This document shows positions 14,658-25,947 of a DNA stretch of 35,391 nucleotides, piece by piece. Position 1 is the stretch's first letter. Every line of letters begins with the position of its first letter. The notes under the pieces were generated by a model that was given only the letters and a program-made list of their open reading frames with translations, made no database searches and was not told the origin of the DNA. Made by a program: the position numbers and the translations under genes. This stretch comes from a virus. Lineage: Duplodnaviria > Caudoviricetes. The stretch is from IMG/VR virus record IMGVR_UViG_3300031748_000007, positions 1 to 35,391 of that record. One strand, given 5' to 3'.

Positions 14658-15727
14658 CGATGCGGAACGTTGACTGGCCCGCGTGGCTGGCCACCGTGGT
14701 GACGTTGGAAAATACCGACGGCACCCGTGGCGCGGACCAAGGCATCGTGGTGTACAACTGCCCGCTGTGCGGCGACACCCGAGCGCGTGGCTGGGCCAAC
14801 GTGCTGCGGCGCAGCGCCGGTTGTTTCAACGCCGGCTGTGAGGCGGAACCGTACCTGTCCGGTGGACTGTACACGCTGGTGCAGCGGATGGAGCAACTGC
14901 CCGACCGTGAAACCGCCGTGCGCTGGGTGCGCGACCGGTACCTGCTGCCGCCCGGTGTAGAGCCCAGCGCCGCAGGGGGGTCGTTTACACGCCCCGTGCC
15001 CCCAGCCTACTTGGACTGGGCTCGGTGGCCACCCCGGTATGCACTGCTGCTGGACGCGCACCTACGCAGCCTGGCAGCGCGTCCATACGTCAATTTTGCC
15101 TGGCGGCAGTGGGGCCTAACGGCGCTGGACCTGGTGGGGGCGGGTGCGGCGTTCGGTGCGCGGGGCCGGTACGCGCACCGGCTGCTGTGGCCCATACCGG
15201 GGGCGGACGGTGCGCCCATTGGCTTTCAGGCCCGCACCATACGCGCTGACGGACAGCCCAAGTACCGCACGCATCACGCGGGCGCGTTCGACGACCCGGA
15301 CGCGGAGGCTGGCCGACCCGTCGGCGCTATGGTGTATGGCATGGACCGGCTGGCCCGCCTGCCCTACGGCGCGACGCTGGTGATCGTGGAGGGCATAGCC
15401 GACGTGCTGCGCCTGCGCACCGACCCGTCGTTCGACGCGGGCGAGCCGGTGGCGCTGATGGGTACGGAGTTGACTCGAGAACGCGCCGCGCTGCTGGCGG
15501 CGGTACGCCCCGCCCGCGTGGTGGTGGCGCTCGACGCCGACGCCACGGTGCGCGCCGCCGCTCTTGCCTTGGAGCTGGGCGCGTGGGGTCTGGGCGACGT
15601 TGTGCTCGGCCGATGGGAAGGTGGCAAAGATGCAGGCAGCGGCGCACGGTTGGTCGTGGGGCCGGTGCGAGGCGCGCGTGGCTTGTTGGAAGACGTGGTA
15701 TGGACCAAACTGCACGGAAGACTATGA
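14654..15727 (+). CDS. dnaG: DnaG-like DNA primase (Zn finger plus Toprim)
   Basis: CPLC...GCFNAGC Zn finger, IGFQARTI, PKY, IVEGIAD, VALDAD, KDAG; start is GTG 14654 or ATG 14660. Confidence 0.88.
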   Translation: MTMRNVDWPAWLATVVTLENTDGTRGADQGIVVYNCPLCGDTRARGWANVLRRSAGCFNAGCEAEPYLSGGLYTLVQRMEQLPDRETAVRWVRDRYLLPPGVEPSAAGGSFTRPVPPAYLDWARWPPRYALLLDAHLRSLAARPYVNFAWRQWGLTALDLVGAGAAFGARGRYAHRLLWPIPGADGAPIGFQARTIRADGQPKYRTHHAGAFDDPDAEAGRPVGAMVYGMDRLARLPYGATLVIVEGIADVLRLRTDPSFDAGEPVALMGTELTRERAALLAAVRPARVVVALDADATVRAAALALELGAWGLGDVVLGRWEGGKDAGSGARLVVGPVRGARGLLEDVVWTKLHGRL

Positions 15728-15820
15728 AGAGAGGCAGCATCCGGCCTGCGCCCTCTAGCCAGTGGGCCAGGCAATGTCCGCTGGGCGTCAGCAGCGGTTA
15801 AACCGGAGGGGAAGGAGAAG

Positions 15821-16111
15821 GTGATGGGAGCGACCGCACGCAAAATTGTAAAGCCGGCAGTCCGTGCCCGGTTGAAGCAGTGGTTCACGGTGCATGTGCC
15901 CACGTACCGGGCGTTCCGCCTGACCGCCATCGAGCGCGGCGACACCCTGGCCACGGCGATCCGCCTGGCGATGGAACTGTACGTCGAGCACAACGCCCGG
16001 TGGCTACGGTTCCTGGCGTCGGAGGTACCGCATCACCACATCGCGCGGCGCAGGGGCCGCGTAGACGCCAGCGAACTTGATGCATCAACCCGCGACAGCA
16101 CCGATAAGTAA
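15821..16111 (+). CDS. Small basic protein, possibly ribbon-helix-helix DNA-binding
   Basis: Strong RBS (ggaaggagaagg); QWFTVHVP..YRAFRLTAIERGDTLATAIRLAMELY fits a beta-alpha-alpha pattern. Confidence 0.6.
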   Translation: MMGATARKIVKPAVRARLKQWFTVHVPTYRAFRLTAIERGDTLATAIRLAMELYVEHNARWLRFLASEVPHHHIARRRGRVDASELDASTRDSTDK

Positions 16112-16202
16112 AAGACTTGGTGGTCGTCGGCGACCCGGTGACATTTTAGACTTAGCGGTCAACAGCTACGCGGTAAGTAGCGCGGTAGACCCCGCTAGGC
16201 CC

Positions 16203-16233
16203 TGCGGCACAAGGGCTTTGCGGCACAAGGGCT
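16203..16233. repeat. Tandem 15-bp direct repeat TGCGGCACAAGGGCT x2 (period 16)
   Basis: Exact copies at 16203-16217 and 16219-16233, ~50 bp upstream of a promoter. Confidence 0.85.
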
Positions 16234-16280
16234 GGCCGGTGGTGGTCTAAGTCCCCGGAATAACAGGGGTTTTTACCCCC

Positions 16281-16308
16281 TTGCCTTTGGCCAGGCAATG
16301 GCTAGAAT
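16281..16308 (+). promoter_or_regulatory. Sigma70-like promoter TTGCCT-N16-TAGAAT with an overlapping palindrome TTGCCT-N6-AGGCAA
   Basis: -35 at 16281-16286 and -10 at 16303-16308, in an AT-richer patch at the start of the long non-coding region. Confidence 0.6.
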
Positions 16309-16314
16309 ACTGGG

Positions 16315-17133
16315 TGCCACCGGCAAAGTGCCGGTGGGGCAGGGCTGGCCCGGTGGGCTGGCAGAAAGGCAGGTAGTTGGGAAAGCGATCAACGGTTGCA
16401 TACGGTTGGGCCTGTGAGCCCCGTGTCCCTCAGGAGTAGGGTACGCCAGCGGCGTACCGGCCCCTGGCGCAAAAGCCACGCGAGTAGCGCCAGGCCGACG
16501 GTAGACCGCCCGGCCCAAAACGCAGGTAGGGCACAGGGAGGCAGGGCAAGGCTAATGGCTGAACCCAACCGGCGGGCGACCCGCACGGTGCGCGCACAGG
16601 CGCACCGGGGCGGTGCATCGGACCCGGCCACCCCATAGGCTGTAGTTCAGGGGGGAATGGCGACAAGGCGAAAACGGACACCCGTGTGTGCTGCATTTGG
16701 TATCGGCGCAGGGCGAGCCCCAGGTGACAGCGGGGCGCTGCGCGGCGTAGACCCAAGGCGGGCCGGGTGGTGGAACCTAGTAATGCCCAAAGATGAGTGA
16801 GAAGTCGAAATTCCGGCCATGACTCAGAGTCAGCCCAAGCCCGCGTGTAACTGGCGCGGCATACGGGCTGCGCGGTGCGGCCTGGCCCGGTGTGCAACGT
16901 TGCACACCGGGCTGTGACCACACCAACCCCTGGTCCTTACAAAGACGCGGCGCGAGCCGCACAGGGCGTTCAAGACTGACGCAGGACGGTGGCGAAACCT
17001 TTGTTGAGTAGCCGCCCCTGCTAGTGGCACGCTGCGGGCTGACCCCCCAGCAGCGGTAGACCCAGCACCAGACACCGAGCGACCCAGCGGGGGTTGCCCG
17101 CACCCCTGAGTCATTACGTGCGAGGCCGGAATC
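16315..17133 (+). ncRNA. Putative large structured non-coding RNA (~820 nt), with its 3' end defined by hammerhead HH1
   Basis: No credible ORF. Perfect helices: 16317-25/16329-37, 16403-10/16564-71, 16440-47/16451-58, 16463-70/16487-94, 16586-93/16600-07, 16622-29/16761-68, 16829-36/17036-43, plus a 28-nt palindrome at 16885-16912. Confidence 0.55.
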
Positions 17134-17170
17134 TTCGGGGGCTGACCGCCCCGGACTGATGAGACAGGTC
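16804..17170 (+). ncRNA. Type II hammerhead ribozyme HH1 with a 278-nt insert in stem III; predicted cleavage after AUC 17133
   Basis: GUC(16804-06), GAAA, then UUCCGGCC pairing with GGCCGGAA(17124-31), UC, stem I UUC(g)GGGGC/GCCCCGGA, CUGAUGA(17156-62), GAC. The stem III extension AUGACUCAG(16819-27) pairs with CUGAGUCAU(17106-14). The 3' tail GGUC(17167-70) can pair with loop I GACC(17144-47) as a pseudoknot. Confidence 0.8.
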
Positions 17171-17188
17171 GAAAGGTGGTGACACTAC

Positions 17189-17287
17189 ATGCTCACGATC
17201 GTGGGTGCGTACCTTGGCGAAATGCTGTTCGTGTACGCGCTGTACAAACTGGCCAGCCGGCCCGTGCCTGCAAAGGCGGGCCGCTGA
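17189..17287 (+). CDS. 32-aa hydrophobic membrane peptide MLTIVGAYLGEMLFVYALYKLASRPVPAKAGR
   Basis: RBS-like gaaaggtggtga; lies between HH1 and HH2; hydrophobic segment followed by a basic tail; below the ORF-track size cutoff. Confidence 0.55.
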   Translation: MLTIVGAYLGEMLFVYALYKLASRPVPAKAGR

Positions 17288-17303
17288 CCGCGTTGACCCT
17301 GAA

Positions 17304-17378
17304 TGCCGATAACGGCGGGCGCGGGAGACCCCGCCGTTGCCGTGGTGGTGGCCCCCCACGGCCTGATGAGGCAAGCCC
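17304..17378 (+). ncRNA. Type II hammerhead ribozyme HH2 (GAUAA core variant); predicted cleavage after GUU 17338
   Basis: UGCC, GAUAA, CGGCGGG/CCCGCCG, UU, GCCGUGG/CCACGGC, CUGAUGA(17363-69), GGCA, AGCCC. Confidence 0.75.
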
Positions 17379-17424
17379 GACCAGGCAATGCCGCCTGGCG
17401 CACCCGAAGCGTCTGGAGATTCAG

Positions 17425-17652
17425 ATGACCCGCACTACTGTTCGCGGCAGTCGCCGCCTTGTCCGTACCCGTACCGAGTTGGCCCACACCAGCGGCACTA
17501 TGCGCGCCAAGGTGTTGGGTTTCGTTCCGCGTGGCCGTCGTGGCGCAACTTACGCGTCGGTTATCGCCAGCGCCCGTAAGGCTCGCATTCCCCGGCCTTA
17601 CTGCAAGGTCAGCAAGCTGATCGCTGGCGGCATGCTGCGGTACGCTGCGTGA
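17425..17652 (+). CDS. Small basic protein, paralog 1 (75 aa, putative winged-helix-like nucleic-acid binder)
   Basis: RBS ggag; MTRTTVRGSRRLVRTRTELAHTSGTMRAKVLGFVPRG...KVSKLIAGGMLRYAA; clearly homologous to 17779 and 18155. Confidence 0.85.
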   Translation: MTRTTVRGSRRLVRTRTELAHTSGTMRAKVLGFVPRGRRGATYASVIASARKARIPRPYCKVSKLIAGGMLRYAA

Positions 17653-17655
17653 CCA

Positions 17656-17724
17656 GCCGAAACGGCGCACCCGCGTGCGCCGTCGCCAGGGCGGTGGCAC
17701 CGCCTGGCCTGATGAGGCAAGCCC
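17656..17724 (+). ncRNA. Type II hammerhead ribozyme HH3 (canonical core); predicted cleavage after GUC 17684
   Basis: GCC, GAAA(17659-62), CGGCGCAC/GUGCGCCG, UC, GCCAGG/CCUGGC, CUGAUGA(17709-15), GGC, AAGCCC. All core nucleotides and three stems are present. Confidence 0.92.
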
Positions 17725-17778
17725 ACGGTGGGGACTGGCCCGCCGCGCACCCGAAGCGATTCTCCAAAGGGGGATCAA

Positions 17779-18006
17779 ATGTCAAAGGTTGTTCGCAAGG
17801 CCGACAAGCGCCTGGTCCGTACAGGCACCAAGCTGGCCCACACGGGCACGCTGCGTTCGACGGTCCTGGGGTTCGTTCCGGCGGGCCGTGGCGCGATGCA
17901 CAGCGCCGTGGTCGCCAAGACCCACAAGGCCGGCATCAAGTACCCGGCACAGAAAATCCACAAGCTGATTCTCAGCGGTGTGCTGCGGTACGCGAAGTCC
18001 GCGTGA
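17779..18006 (+). CDS. Small basic protein, paralog 2 (75 aa)
   Basis: RBS aaaggggg; MSKVVRKADKRLVRTGTKLAHTGTLRSTVLGFVPAG...KIHKLILSGVLRYAKSA. Confidence 0.85.
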   Translation: MSKVVRKADKRLVRTGTKLAHTGTLRSTVLGFVPAGRGAMHSAVVAKTHKAGIKYPAQKIHKLILSGVLRYAKSA

Positions 18007-18084
18007 ACCGAAACGGCGGGCCGCAAACCGTAGACCCGCCGTCGTCAGGGTGGTGGCACCCCCTGGCCCGATGACGGTAAGCCC
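18007..18084 (+). ncRNA. Type II hammerhead ribozyme HH4 (CCGAUGA plus extra C variant); predicted cleavage after GUC 18043
   Basis: ACC, GAAA(18010-13), CGGCGGG/CCCGCCG, UC, GUCAGGG/CCCUGGC, CCGAUGA(18068-74), C, GGU, AAGCCC. Confidence 0.7.
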
Positions 18085-18154
18085 CGACGCGCATGGTGCG
18101 CGCCGGCATACACAGGCACTGCGGTGGGACAGCCGCCGTGCTGTAGGAGGTACC

Positions 18155-18520
18155 ATGTCCGATACCAAGAGCACCGCGAAGACGACTGCCGCAAAGGCCG
18201 AGGCCCCCAAGGCCAAGGTCAGCAAGGCCAACAAGGCCACCAAGGGCAGCCGCAAGGCCAAGGTCAGCCGCAAGCACGACAAGGACTTCGCCCGCAAGGT
18301 TGCGGCAACCCGCAAGGCCAACTTCGGCAAGAGCGTCGCCCTCGGCGATCGTAACGCCGAAGTCGCTGGCGACCGCAAAGCGATCGTGAAGCTGGTGCCC
18401 ACCAAGGGCAAGATCGCGTACAGTGACCTGACCGCCAAGGCCAGCGAGAAGGACATCAGCCGCCCGAGCGGCAAGGTCCGCAAGCTGGTCGAGCGCGGCG
18501 TGCTGCGTTTCGTCAGCTAG
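18155..18520 (+). CDS. Basic protein, paralog 3, with a histone H1-like Lys/Ala-rich N-tail (121 aa)
   Basis: RBS aggagg; KAKVSK repeats, then DRKAIVKLVPTKGKIAYSDL...KVRKLVERGVLRFVS. Confidence 0.88.
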   Translation: MSDTKSTAKTTAAKAEAPKAKVSKANKATKGSRKAKVSRKHDKDFARKVAATRKANFGKSVALGDRNAEVAGDRKAIVKLVPTKGKIAYSDLTAKASEKDISRPSGKVRKLVERGVLRFVS

Positions 18521-18622
18521 TCTCCAGCGGCTAGCTAGCGCAACACCATGATGCGGCGGGGCGCGGTGGGCGTTGCCCGTGGATGCCCACCAACCCCCGG
18601 CGCGTGGGAAAGGAGAACAGCA

Positions 18623-18940
18623 ATGTCTGACAAGACCGAGCGGTGCAAGTGCGGGCGCGGCCTGCGCCGCGCAACTGCGGACCGCTACGAAAAGCCGGCA
18701 ATGGTGTGCGTCGAGTGCAGTTGCTTGCCTGCGTTTTGCAAGTGCAGCGACGTGCACGCCAAGCGGATGTGTGAGTCGTGTGAAGAGACGCCGGCCGAAC
18801 TGCGATTCACGGCATGCAACATGGACGGCACCATTCTGCACGACCAGGCCCTGTGCCGTGCCTGCGCCAACTACACCCCGCAGTTTGGCCACACGGTCAC
18901 GGTTGAATTCAACGTGGGCACGCCGGCCAACTGGGCGTAG
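18623..18940 (+). CDS. Cys-rich hypothetical protein
   Basis: RBS gaaaggag; multiple CxxC motifs. Confidence 0.75.
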   Translation: MSDKTERCKCGRGLRRATADRYEKPAMVCVECSCLPAFCKCSDVHAKRMCESCEETPAELRFTACNMDGTILHDQALCRACANYTPQFGHTVTVEFNVGTPANWA

Positions 18941-24785: not shown

Positions 24786-25028
24786 TTGGCAAAGAAACGG
24801 CAAGTGCTCCAAGTGCATGACGGCGATGTTGCAGTCATGCGCACAGGCAACGGTTCCATAAGCGTGTTCTTTCACGCTGTTGGGATCAACGTCGTGAGTG
24901 ACGAGCAAGTGCCTGGCACCGCGATGGTCATGCGCCCTGGTCCTGAGGCAATCGAAGAGATACCGGGGCGGGTGGTGGCGGTGTGTTTCAGCCCCATCAC
25001 CAAGGAGAAAAGAAATGTCAAACCGTAA
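24786..25028 (+). CDS. Hypothetical protein (TTG start)
   Basis: RBS aagggggtga; fills the gap before ardC. Confidence 0.6.
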   Translation: MAKKRQVLQVHDGDVAVMRTGNGSISVFFHAVGINVVSDEQVPGTAMVMRPGPEAIEEIPGRVVAVCFSPITKEKRNVKP

Positions 25029-25947
25029 GGCATACGAACAGATCACGGAGCGCGTGCTGGCCCTGTTGAAGACCGGCACCGTGCCGTGGCACAAGCCGTG
25101 GAGCGGTGGTGCAGCGGCCATGCCCCGCAACCTGATGCGCGGCAGGCCGTATCGCGGCATCAACCTGTGGCTGCTGATCATGGCAGCCATGGACAAGGGG
25201 TACGAGCATCCGTACTGGTTGACCTTCCGCCAGGCCCGGATGCTCGGTGGCCACGTGAAGAAGGGTGAGCATGGCACGGCCATAACCTTTTGGAAGCGTG
25301 GCTCGCGACGCGTAGACCCGGACCCGGACGATGAGGACGATGCAGCCACCGAGCGCAAGTACCTGCTGGTGCGCTTCTACACCGTGTTCAACGTCGCGCA
25401 GTGTGAAGGGCTGCGCGCGTCGCGGCTGCCGGTGGAGGCACCGGGGCTTGGTGAGGCGGAGCGCATTGCTGCCGCCGAGGCGATTGTGGCCGGCTACAAG
25501 GCCGCGCCCACCATCACCAACGGCGGGGGACGTGCGTGCTACACCCCGAAGACGGACGTGGTGGCCATGCCTGCGTTCAAAACCTTCGAGTCCGGTGCTG
25601 AATACTACAGCACGCTGTTCCATGAGTTGACGCACAGCACCGGGCACCCCACGCGGCTGAACCGCGCGGGTATTGCGGACATCAAGCCGTTCGGCACCGA
25701 AGACTACAGCAAGGAAGAACTGGTGGCCGAATTCGGCGCGACGTTCCTGTGCGGCATGGCTGGCATTGAGAACCGCACGGTCAACAACAGTGCCGCGTAC
25801 CTGCGGCACTGGGCCGAGCGGCTGCGTGCCGACACTACCCTGGTGCTGAGCGCCGCAAGCCAGGCACAGGCGGCAGCCGACCACATTCTCGGGGTCGAGC
25901 CTGCTGCGGCTAACGAGAATTCCGATAGCGACGAGGACGCGGCGTAG
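25015..25947 (+). CDS. ardC: ArdC-like antirestriction ssDNA-binding protein (DUF1738 plus zincin-like domain)
   Basis: GTVPWHKPW, YRGINLWLL, WLTFRQA, VKKGEHG, YTVFNVAQ, YYSTLFHELTHSTGH..RLNR, YSKEELVAE, SAAYLRHW. Confidence 0.93.
   Translation: MSNRKAYEQITERVLALLKTGTVPWHKPWSGGAAAMPRNLMRGRPYRGINLWLLIMAAMDKGYEHPYWLTFRQARMLGGHVKKGEHGTAITFWKRGSRRVDPDPDDEDDAATERKYLLVRFYTVFNVAQCEGLRASRLPVEAPGLGEAERIAAAEAIVAGYKAAPTITNGGGRACYTPKTDVVAMPAFKTFESGAEYYSTLFHELTHSTGHPTRLNRAGIADIKPFGTEDYSKEELVAEFGATFLCGMAGIENRTVNNSAAYLRHWAERLRADTTLVLSAASQAQAAADHILGVEPAAANENSDSDEDAA

Follow-up and report, generated by a model that had tools for sequence, protein, structure and literature searches.

A large structured RNA and a predicted split hammerhead ribozyme in the early region of an uncultured soil phage

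The gene-free gap and its neighbours

We analysed a linear virus record of 35,391 bases (the window, taken over its whole length), which is estimated to be about 42% complete and comes from an uncultured soil phage. Near-identical DNA occurs in 24 listed soil metagenome runs; none of these is an RNA run and they have no bearing on expression. The genes of the record include those for the terminase large subunit, helicases, a DnaC-like loader, DnaB and a primase. The primase is followed by an open reading frame of 96 codons that ends at 16111, the last credible one before the gap, and the next gene begins at 17189. This confirms the gene-free gap at 16112-17188 that the first-pass annotation of this DNA had described. 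From 17189 to the end of the record we found small plus-strand genes with strong ribosome sites. The features from the start of the gap onwards are:

16281..16308, plus strand: sigma-70-type promoter-like site (TTGCCT-16-TAGAAT; -35 at 16281-86, -10 at 16303-08; predicted start near 16315)
16315..17133, plus strand: predicted released RNA, about 819 nt, non-coding, structure-conserved
17189..17287, plus strand: gene for a hydrophobic peptide of 32 aa that has a basic tail; it comes first on the 3' cleavage product
17304..17381, plus strand: HH2, compact type II hammerhead (28.4 bits; predicted cut after 17338; extra U in the GAAA element)
17425..17652, plus strand: gene for a basic 75-aa protein with a predicted winged-helix fold
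17655..17727, plus strand: HH3, compact type II hammerhead (42.9 bits, above the Rfam gathering score; predicted cut after 17684)
17779..18006, plus strand: gene for a basic 75-aa paralog, 55% identical to the first
18006..18087, plus strand: HH4, compact type II hammerhead (32.1 bits; predicted cut after 18043; C replaces core U4)
18155..18520, plus strand: gene for a 121-aa paralog with a Lys/Ala-rich N-terminal tail

The sigma70-like promoter reported earlier at 16281-16308 was retrieved: we found one promoter-like site, against 0.2 ± 0.5 in shuffled sequences. In L263, the diverged relative of the locus described below, its hexamers carry no change in 12 letters and the adjoining spacer and downstream letters carry 6 in 22.

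The first gene of the downstream product is not one of the basic proteins that the first-pass annotation had placed directly after the gap. It encodes the 32-aa peptide, and its ribosome site lies directly 3' of the pseudoknot of the first hammerhead, in a small hairpin. Four of the five codons that changed in L263 are synonymous, and by this comparison the gene is real and under purifying selection. The make-up of the peptide is like that of small membrane peptides. The basic proteins come after the second ribozyme. None of the three has a Pfam or PHROG match. A model of the first paralog (pLDDT 80) matched many winged-helix chains (best Z 6.4, rmsd 2.2, 64 aligned), and a Foldseek search with it gave no match at E 0.001; with these modest scores we predict a winged-helix fold for the family. 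For such a fold, DNA binding is at least as likely as a link to RNA. When 1.84 billion proteins were searched with a profile of the paralogs, the matches were limited to the clusters of these proteins themselves and three or four long, repetitive proteins. Moreover, L263 and another relative, L268, carry different inserted genes between the 32-aa gene and the next hammerhead, whose products of about 110 and 145 aa have Cys/His clusters. Hence, the earlier proposal that the basic paralogs are partners of the RNA in an RNP is unsupported: they are predicted winged-helix proteins, they are not adjacent and the relatives insert unrelated genes in between. In L268 the hammerhead after the inserted gene is a chimera of HH4 and HH2, and the contig ends there. 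From these comparisons, the ribozyme-flanked slots appear to exchange genes. The core insertion of HH2 (U13a) is among the variants described for type II hammerheads (PMC3088659), while the U4 to C change in the core of HH4 suggests that its activity may be impaired.

Other elements of the region are of separate interest. Two tandem direct repeats of about 15 nt lie at 16201-16231, just 5' of the promoter, and are kept in L263. They adjoin the 96-aa gene (15821-16111), which has no Pfam or PHROG family match and whose product, judged by eye, we presume to be a ribbon-helix-helix protein; the gene and the repeats are a possible repressor and operator. The 7-mer GTAGACC occurs at 19 plus-strand sites (7505 to 34198) and 2 minus-strand sites. 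Eighteen of the 19 plus-strand sites lie downstream of 16112 (p 1.6e-4), and the sites are often in hairpin loops or at gene junctions, four of them within the gene-free gap. L263 has extra copies, and 13 related loci show no enrichment. The 7-mer is possibly an oriented operator or RNA signal. An ArdC-type anti-restriction gene lies at 25015-25947, within the same early operon.

The predicted split hammerhead at the 3' end

The ribozyme at the downstream border of the gap, HH1, is made of two distant halves:

16804..16818, plus strand: HH1 5' half (stem II strand 16804-06, GAAA 16807-10, stem III 5' strand 16810-18)
16819..17123, plus strand: loop III insert of HH1, a 305-nt multi-branched domain closed by helix 16819-27/17106-14
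17124..17170, plus strand: HH1 3' half (stem III 3' strand 17124-32; predicted cut after C17133; stem I 17134-40/17149-55; CUGAUGA 17156-62; stem II strand 17163-65; pseudoknot 17144-47/17167-70)

The core elements stand in type II order (CUGANGA at 17156-62, GAAA at 16807-10, UH cut site at 17132-33). Stem II has 3 bp and is open, and stems I (7 bp) and III (9 bp) are both closed. L263 keeps all three, with stem III at 8 bp (one C-G pair is gone from both arms). The two halves of the core are 324 nt apart and the upstream half lies inside the predicted RNA. Stem III (16810-18/17124-32) is followed by the second 9-bp helix that closes the insert, with pair probabilities of 0.95-1.0 in both, and the chance of finding such an upstream partner within 1400 nt is about 1.5e-6. 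The core, the stem I loop and the pseudoknot match a common phage subfamily of type II hammerheads. A covariance search with Rfam RF02276 gave a partial match at 17109-73 of 20.8 bits (22.8 in L263), below the 37-bit threshold; this match leaves out the distant GAAA half. Without counting the pseudoknot, the active fold is 4.6 kcal/mol less stable than the minimum free energy fold (3.9 in L263); among 59 compact members the median gap is 4.1, and 24 are at or above 4.6. We also considered a local type I or III hammerhead using the GAAA at 17171-74 and rejected it: by inspection it has no matching stem III, and the upstream partner fits fully. On these sequence grounds HH1 is very probably a real split hammerhead, and it is predicted to cleave itself.

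The first-pass annotation had the 3' end of the RNA matured by HH1. The predicted cut after 17133 agrees with this, but HH1 is no plain boundary, since half of its core lies 324 nt upstream within the RNA. The two are interleaved, and the 3' third of the RNA is loop III of the ribozyme.

To place this arrangement among its relatives, we scanned viral contigs for the 15 letters from core to pseudoknot, which gave 122 loci from 48 of the 64 parts of the collection. Sixty-three distinct cores passed the loop filter and had a pairing upstream partner. The stem III span is 15-54 nt in 62 of them and 324 nt in the remaining one, which is this phage. Eleven further cores had no partner under the pairing rule used; some are chance matches in genes and some are hammerheads with variant stems, and five of the 11 had at most 300 nt upstream, where a long insert would escape this count. 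In an unrelated phage (L191, minus strand), about 420 nt upstream of the match, a purine-rich leader close to a promoter ends in a type II hammerhead. This ribozyme has the core variant with the extra U, and its stem III spans 85 nt.

Pseudoknot-type II hammerheads are described as clustering between phage and prophage genes (RF02276; Perreault et al. 2011, PMC3088659). HH1 and its neighbours share with the hammerheads described there the core, the pseudoknot between loop I and the 3' tail, and the flanking of single small genes by several ribozymes. Unlike them, as far as that account goes, HH1 has a loop III of 305 nt under structural selection. A discontinuous hammerhead is known from mammalian Clec2 3' UTRs (reviewed in PMC6765202). 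As in HH1, its core halves are described as several hundred nucleotides apart and active only when brought together; in contrast, HH1 lies in a phage 5' leader, has type II topology and encloses a conserved branched domain that would be released with the product. A literature search, mostly of the open literature at the level of abstracts, did not bring up any phage hammerhead described as having a large conserved domain within it, and the supplementary alignments of PMC3088659 may hold long-loop examples.

Selection and fold of the RNA

We scanned metagenomes for the two HH1 core halves placed 330-360 nt apart. This revealed 10 loci: four near-identical copies of the phage, which differ by 0-1 letters in the RNA, four tandem compact hammerheads, one chance match and L263. 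The latter is 87% identical over 15920-17290 and keeps the layout. It keeps 38 of the 39 letters of 17134-17172, and as the scan pattern demanded an intact core, the conservation of the core is not independent evidence. Hence, the search for homologs in viral metagenomes that the first-pass annotation had suggested produced one diverged relative with covariation, and otherwise near-identical copies only. Blastn against cultured phages gave only two chance matches of 26 nt, and tblastn with the primase gave no match in them. Protein scans of viral contigs returned the same phage only, viral pattern scans returned only the same phage or unrelated matches, and GTDB genomes contained no homolog. 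Contigs from eight DNA runs contained one 151-nt variant of 16904-17038 at depth 2.4, with some changes common with L263, which was not counted.

The comparison with L263 indicates constraint along the whole RNA. It carries 59 substitutions in 774 positions (7.6%, leaving out one exchanged hairpin), against 19 in 82 (23%) at the four-fold sites of the two flanking genes (p 4e-5). Constraint is seen in every third of the RNA (29/260, 10/225 and 20/289). The substitutions have no codon-phase bias (14/24/21), and 19 of the 20 indels are not multiples of three.

The first-pass annotation had counted at least eight perfect helices, long-range ones included. We found 13 of at least 8 bp in 16315-17133, among them 16403-10/16564-71 and 16622-29/16761-68. 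The helices are present, but their number is not beyond chance (shuffles have 8.6 ± 2.8 and reach 13 in 4 of 60 cases, and 6 of 24 other 819-nt windows of the same genome have at least 13), and we rejected the count as evidence of structure. The fold of the whole region is more stable than that of shuffled sequences (z = -2.4, 0 of 20 as stable), but the signal is confined to the 3' 330 nt: with 30 shuffles for each part, z is -0.6 for 16315-16575, +0.4 for 16576-16804 and -5.4 for 16805-17133. For the 5' 490 nt, the fold is not more stable than in shuffled sequences. A long-range helix 16829-36/17036-43 (probability 0.44) was discarded, as it is broken in L263 and local hairpins fit both sequences better. 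Elsewhere, a z of -4.0 was found at 18300-18499, inside the coding sequence of the third paralog, in one of 18 windows.

Covariation provides a second line of evidence. RNAalifold on the two sequences gave five pairs changed on both sides (16369-16399, 16412-16544, 16413-16543, 16475-16481 and 16822-17111). Random placement of the same 60 substitutions gave 1.4 ± 1.1, and five were reached in 1 of 119 nulls. The consensus energy was -385 against -355 ± 7 in the nulls (reached by 0 of 119). The minus strand gave two both-sided changes and a consensus energy of -369. Pair changes on one side were not in excess (77/119 nulls). When we asked how often nulls preserved the fold as well, this occurred in 5 of 100 for the 5' part and 2 of 100 for the insert, and the middle domain was not significant (19/100). 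A structure-blind test found six helices with a both-sided change against 5.2 (135/300 nulls), a long covarying helix in 54 of 300 nulls and a helix with two changes in 4 of 300. One of the five pairs (16369-16399) is doubtful, as a neighbouring pair breaks in L263. We conclude from this comparison that the RNA is under purifying selection, with pair-preserving changes in its 5' and 3' domains; structure at both ends is supported, from two independent sequences only. The parts of the RNA outside the ribozyme core are:

16315..16575, plus strand: 5' domain, three short hairpins and a long arm at 16403-16571
16463..16494, plus strand: repeated module, copy 1 (pair 16475-16481 goes from G-C to A-U in L263)
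16576..16803, plus strand: middle domain and purine-rich linker (10/225 substitutions; no fold excess, z +0.4)
16836..16866, plus strand: exchangeable hairpin, replaced in L263 by a third module copy
16988..17016, plus strand: repeated module, copy 2 (L263 keeps the motif, and loop letters vary)

The long arm of the 5' domain is closed by helices 16403-10/16564-71 and 16411-15/16541-45, and the second of these holds the two adjacent both-sided changes at 16412-16544 and 16413-16543. Conservation is highest in the middle domain, the part whose fold is least certain. In the insert, the closing-helix pair 16822-17111 goes from A-U to G-C in L263. The module consists of a stem, an A-rich strand, a mini-hairpin of 2-3 bp, GAGUA and a stem, and presumably resembles the bulged-G/loop-E motif. 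The RNA has two copies of it, and the two strands of the 35 kb contain no others; L263 has three copies, and a looser version is found in one of seven related leader regions (L129). Such a variable copy number would suit a protein-binding or packing unit.

Rfam scans of 15700-18700 and of L263 placed the RNA in no Rfam family, with ROOL, OLE and other large RNAs unmatched, and the first-pass annotation had likewise recognised no conserved motifs of a known family. A hairpin at 16838-70 looks like domain V of a group II intron; it has no Rfam match and is replaced in L263. A resemblance to a group I core seen by eye has no Rfam match either.

Could the region act as DNA, or encode a protein? 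An origin, a terminal repeat or an operator array would fit its position after the primase gene and the tandem direct repeats just 5' of the promoter, and a 47-codon frame at 16657-16800 stays open in L263. However, the pair-preserving signal is biased to the plus strand, a full ribozyme is threaded through the region and the changes show neither codon phase nor triplet indels. The 47-codon frame, which we rejected as a gene, has no properly spaced ribosome site and shows no synonymous change in its 3' 30 codons. We regard both the DNA element, which the first-pass annotation had named as the case against an RNA, and the small gene as highly improbable. The earlier proposal of a discrete non-coding RNA of about 820 nt is thus supported by purifying selection, by the covariation with L263 and by the intact promoter hexamers. 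By these comparisons the large RNA is real, uncatalogued and maintained by selection, and its split-ribozyme 3' end is unusual.

The uneven fold signal raises the question of whether this is one RNA or two. A leader of 490 nt and a separate, ribozyme-closed RNA of 330 nt, with a host nuclease cutting between them in the purine-rich linker, would account for the difference between the parts and for the lack of consensus pairs between them (only a weak 3-bp helix joins the 5' part to the 3' part). It would also match the leaders of related phages, which have 220-400 nt. Yet the same module is found in both parts, about 90 nt of the linker region are identical in L263, and no second promoter or ribozyme was found inside 16315-17133 by a promoter scan and an Rfam scan. 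We consider the division into two RNAs improbable. From the conservation pattern, the region from promoter to cut is probably one conserved structured transcript.

The insertion of a domain into a hammerhead stem also suggests a natural allosteric ribozyme, in which the loop III domain would sense a ligand or protein, gate HH1 and thereby switch the translation or stability of the 32-aa message. Engineered aptazymes likewise graft a domain into a hammerhead stem. The ribosome site of the peptide gene, directly 3' of the pseudoknot and within its hairpin, is well placed for such a switch, and a bulge of 9 nt that separates stem III from the next helix persists in L263 with varied letters. Nevertheless, these two helices are strong (8-9 bp each, with probabilities near 1), unlike a weak communication stem, and the 5' 490 nt, which are as conserved as the insert, would be left unexplained. 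Such a switch therefore seems rather unlikely to be the purpose of the RNA.

Related loci and the possible role of the RNA

We used an alignment of 18 primases to find related phages, which gave 14 viral loci, one of them this phage. Type P5 twister ribozymes lie between the small genes right after the primase in 4 of the 10 loci scanned (18 matches). The twister arrays comprise six ribozymes in L125:4174-6218, seven in L126:9363-13282, of which the first has a longer inserted stem, and four in L127:9977-15460. Because these arrays occupy the same position, cutting seems to be kept while the ribozyme class changes. Six loci (L124-L127, L129 and L131) have, by reading, a purine-rich leader of 220-400 nt behind a promoter-like site; L123 has none clearly. 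Most of these leaders fold no better than shuffles, like the 5' half here, and they are not alignable with this RNA (all z at most 1.9), so that no deep family is shown for it. From these comparisons, the position and the cutting of the early transcript are family traits, and the RNA and the ribozyme class are exchanged. Two loci (L125:3905-4115 and L126:9158-9362) share an uncatalogued leader RNA of about 220-290 nt between the promoter and the first twister, in which, as a raw count, 8 of 49 consensus pairs are changed on both sides.

These leaders bear on a reading in which the RNA works in cis, modifying RNA polymerase like the put RNA of HK022 such that the early operon is read through, with the ribozyme merely trimming the leader. 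The RNA lies directly behind the early promoter of a plus-strand gene run of more than 19 kb, and six relatives have a leader at the same place. The put RNAs are likewise structured and described as sitting just downstream of early phage promoters (PMC9378689). By the same description they have about 70 nt and two stem-loops and no ribozyme, whereas this RNA is ten times larger, with several domains in 819 nt and a ribozyme. In addition, L130 has an early operon and a twister without a leader, and the conserved 305-nt domain inside the ribozyme would be needless for such a job. We hold antitermination to be an unlikely explanation.

We favour, tentatively and at slightly under even odds, an early transcript that is released by its own split hammerhead as a folded, protein-binding RNA. 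Host polymerase would start near 16315, making the RNA the likely first product of the early promoter. During folding, the helices that close the 3' domain would zip and the hammerhead would then assemble. To form, the ribozyme would need a finished and closed 3' domain, and cleavage would hence follow folding. The cut after 17133 would release about 820 nt with a base-paired 3' end and a 2',3'-cyclic phosphate, and would start a fresh message with a 5'-OH for the 32-aa peptide and the early genes, which HH2-HH4 would cut further into pieces of 346 and 359 nt. The released RNA would act by its shape, binding protein through the repeated modules in a multivalent manner. Its action in trans, as a scaffold or decoy in early infection, is the weakest step. 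We propose it mainly because the module copy number varies (two here, three in L263), and give it somewhat less than an even chance.

The RNA invites comparison with GOLLD and ROOL, phage-encoded RNAs of about 600-830 nt that are described as rich in multi-stem junctions and as still open in function (PMC5737381; bioRxiv 10.1101/2024.12.08.627333). Like GOLLD in these accounts, it is close to 800 nt long (819 nt), lies among phage genes, has many multi-stem junctions and joins a 5' and a 3' domain by a linker. It differs in having a 3' end predicted to be made by a threaded ribozyme and in lacking a covariance-model match. The GOLLD model (RF02032) gave none in 15700-18700 with a cutoff of E 10, and none in L263 with a cutoff of E 5. 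GOLLD is often near tRNA genes; a tRNA search of the 35-kb record, which is about 42% complete, found none. A further trait of GOLLD and ROOL is an RNA-only multimeric cage. A bolder reading, which we consider plausible but unlikely, is that the RNA founds a class of phage RNAs of GOLLD size, each joined to the ribozyme that matures it, and that it is modular and forms a multivalent particle that neutralises a host factor within the first minutes after infection. As part of this unlikely reading, the hammerhead core would clamp the ornate domain and cut only when the domain is folded or bound to its partner.

Bacteria and phages have few known RNAs that are as large and complex as this one, and what ribozymes do among phage genes is described as unsettled (PMC6765202). 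The locus joins these two questions, the function of large phage RNAs and the purpose of phage ribozymes. With the ribozyme built into the RNA, cleavage would be a direct read-out of folding or of the effect of a ligand or protein. Covariance-model scans miss hammerheads with long loop III inserts, and more such RNAs may therefore hide in the early regions of phages.

A separate structure, unrelated to this RNA, also came to light: a perfect hairpin with tandem G-A mismatches (L271, L273, L281 and L282), which occurs twice in each of two low-GC phage contigs.
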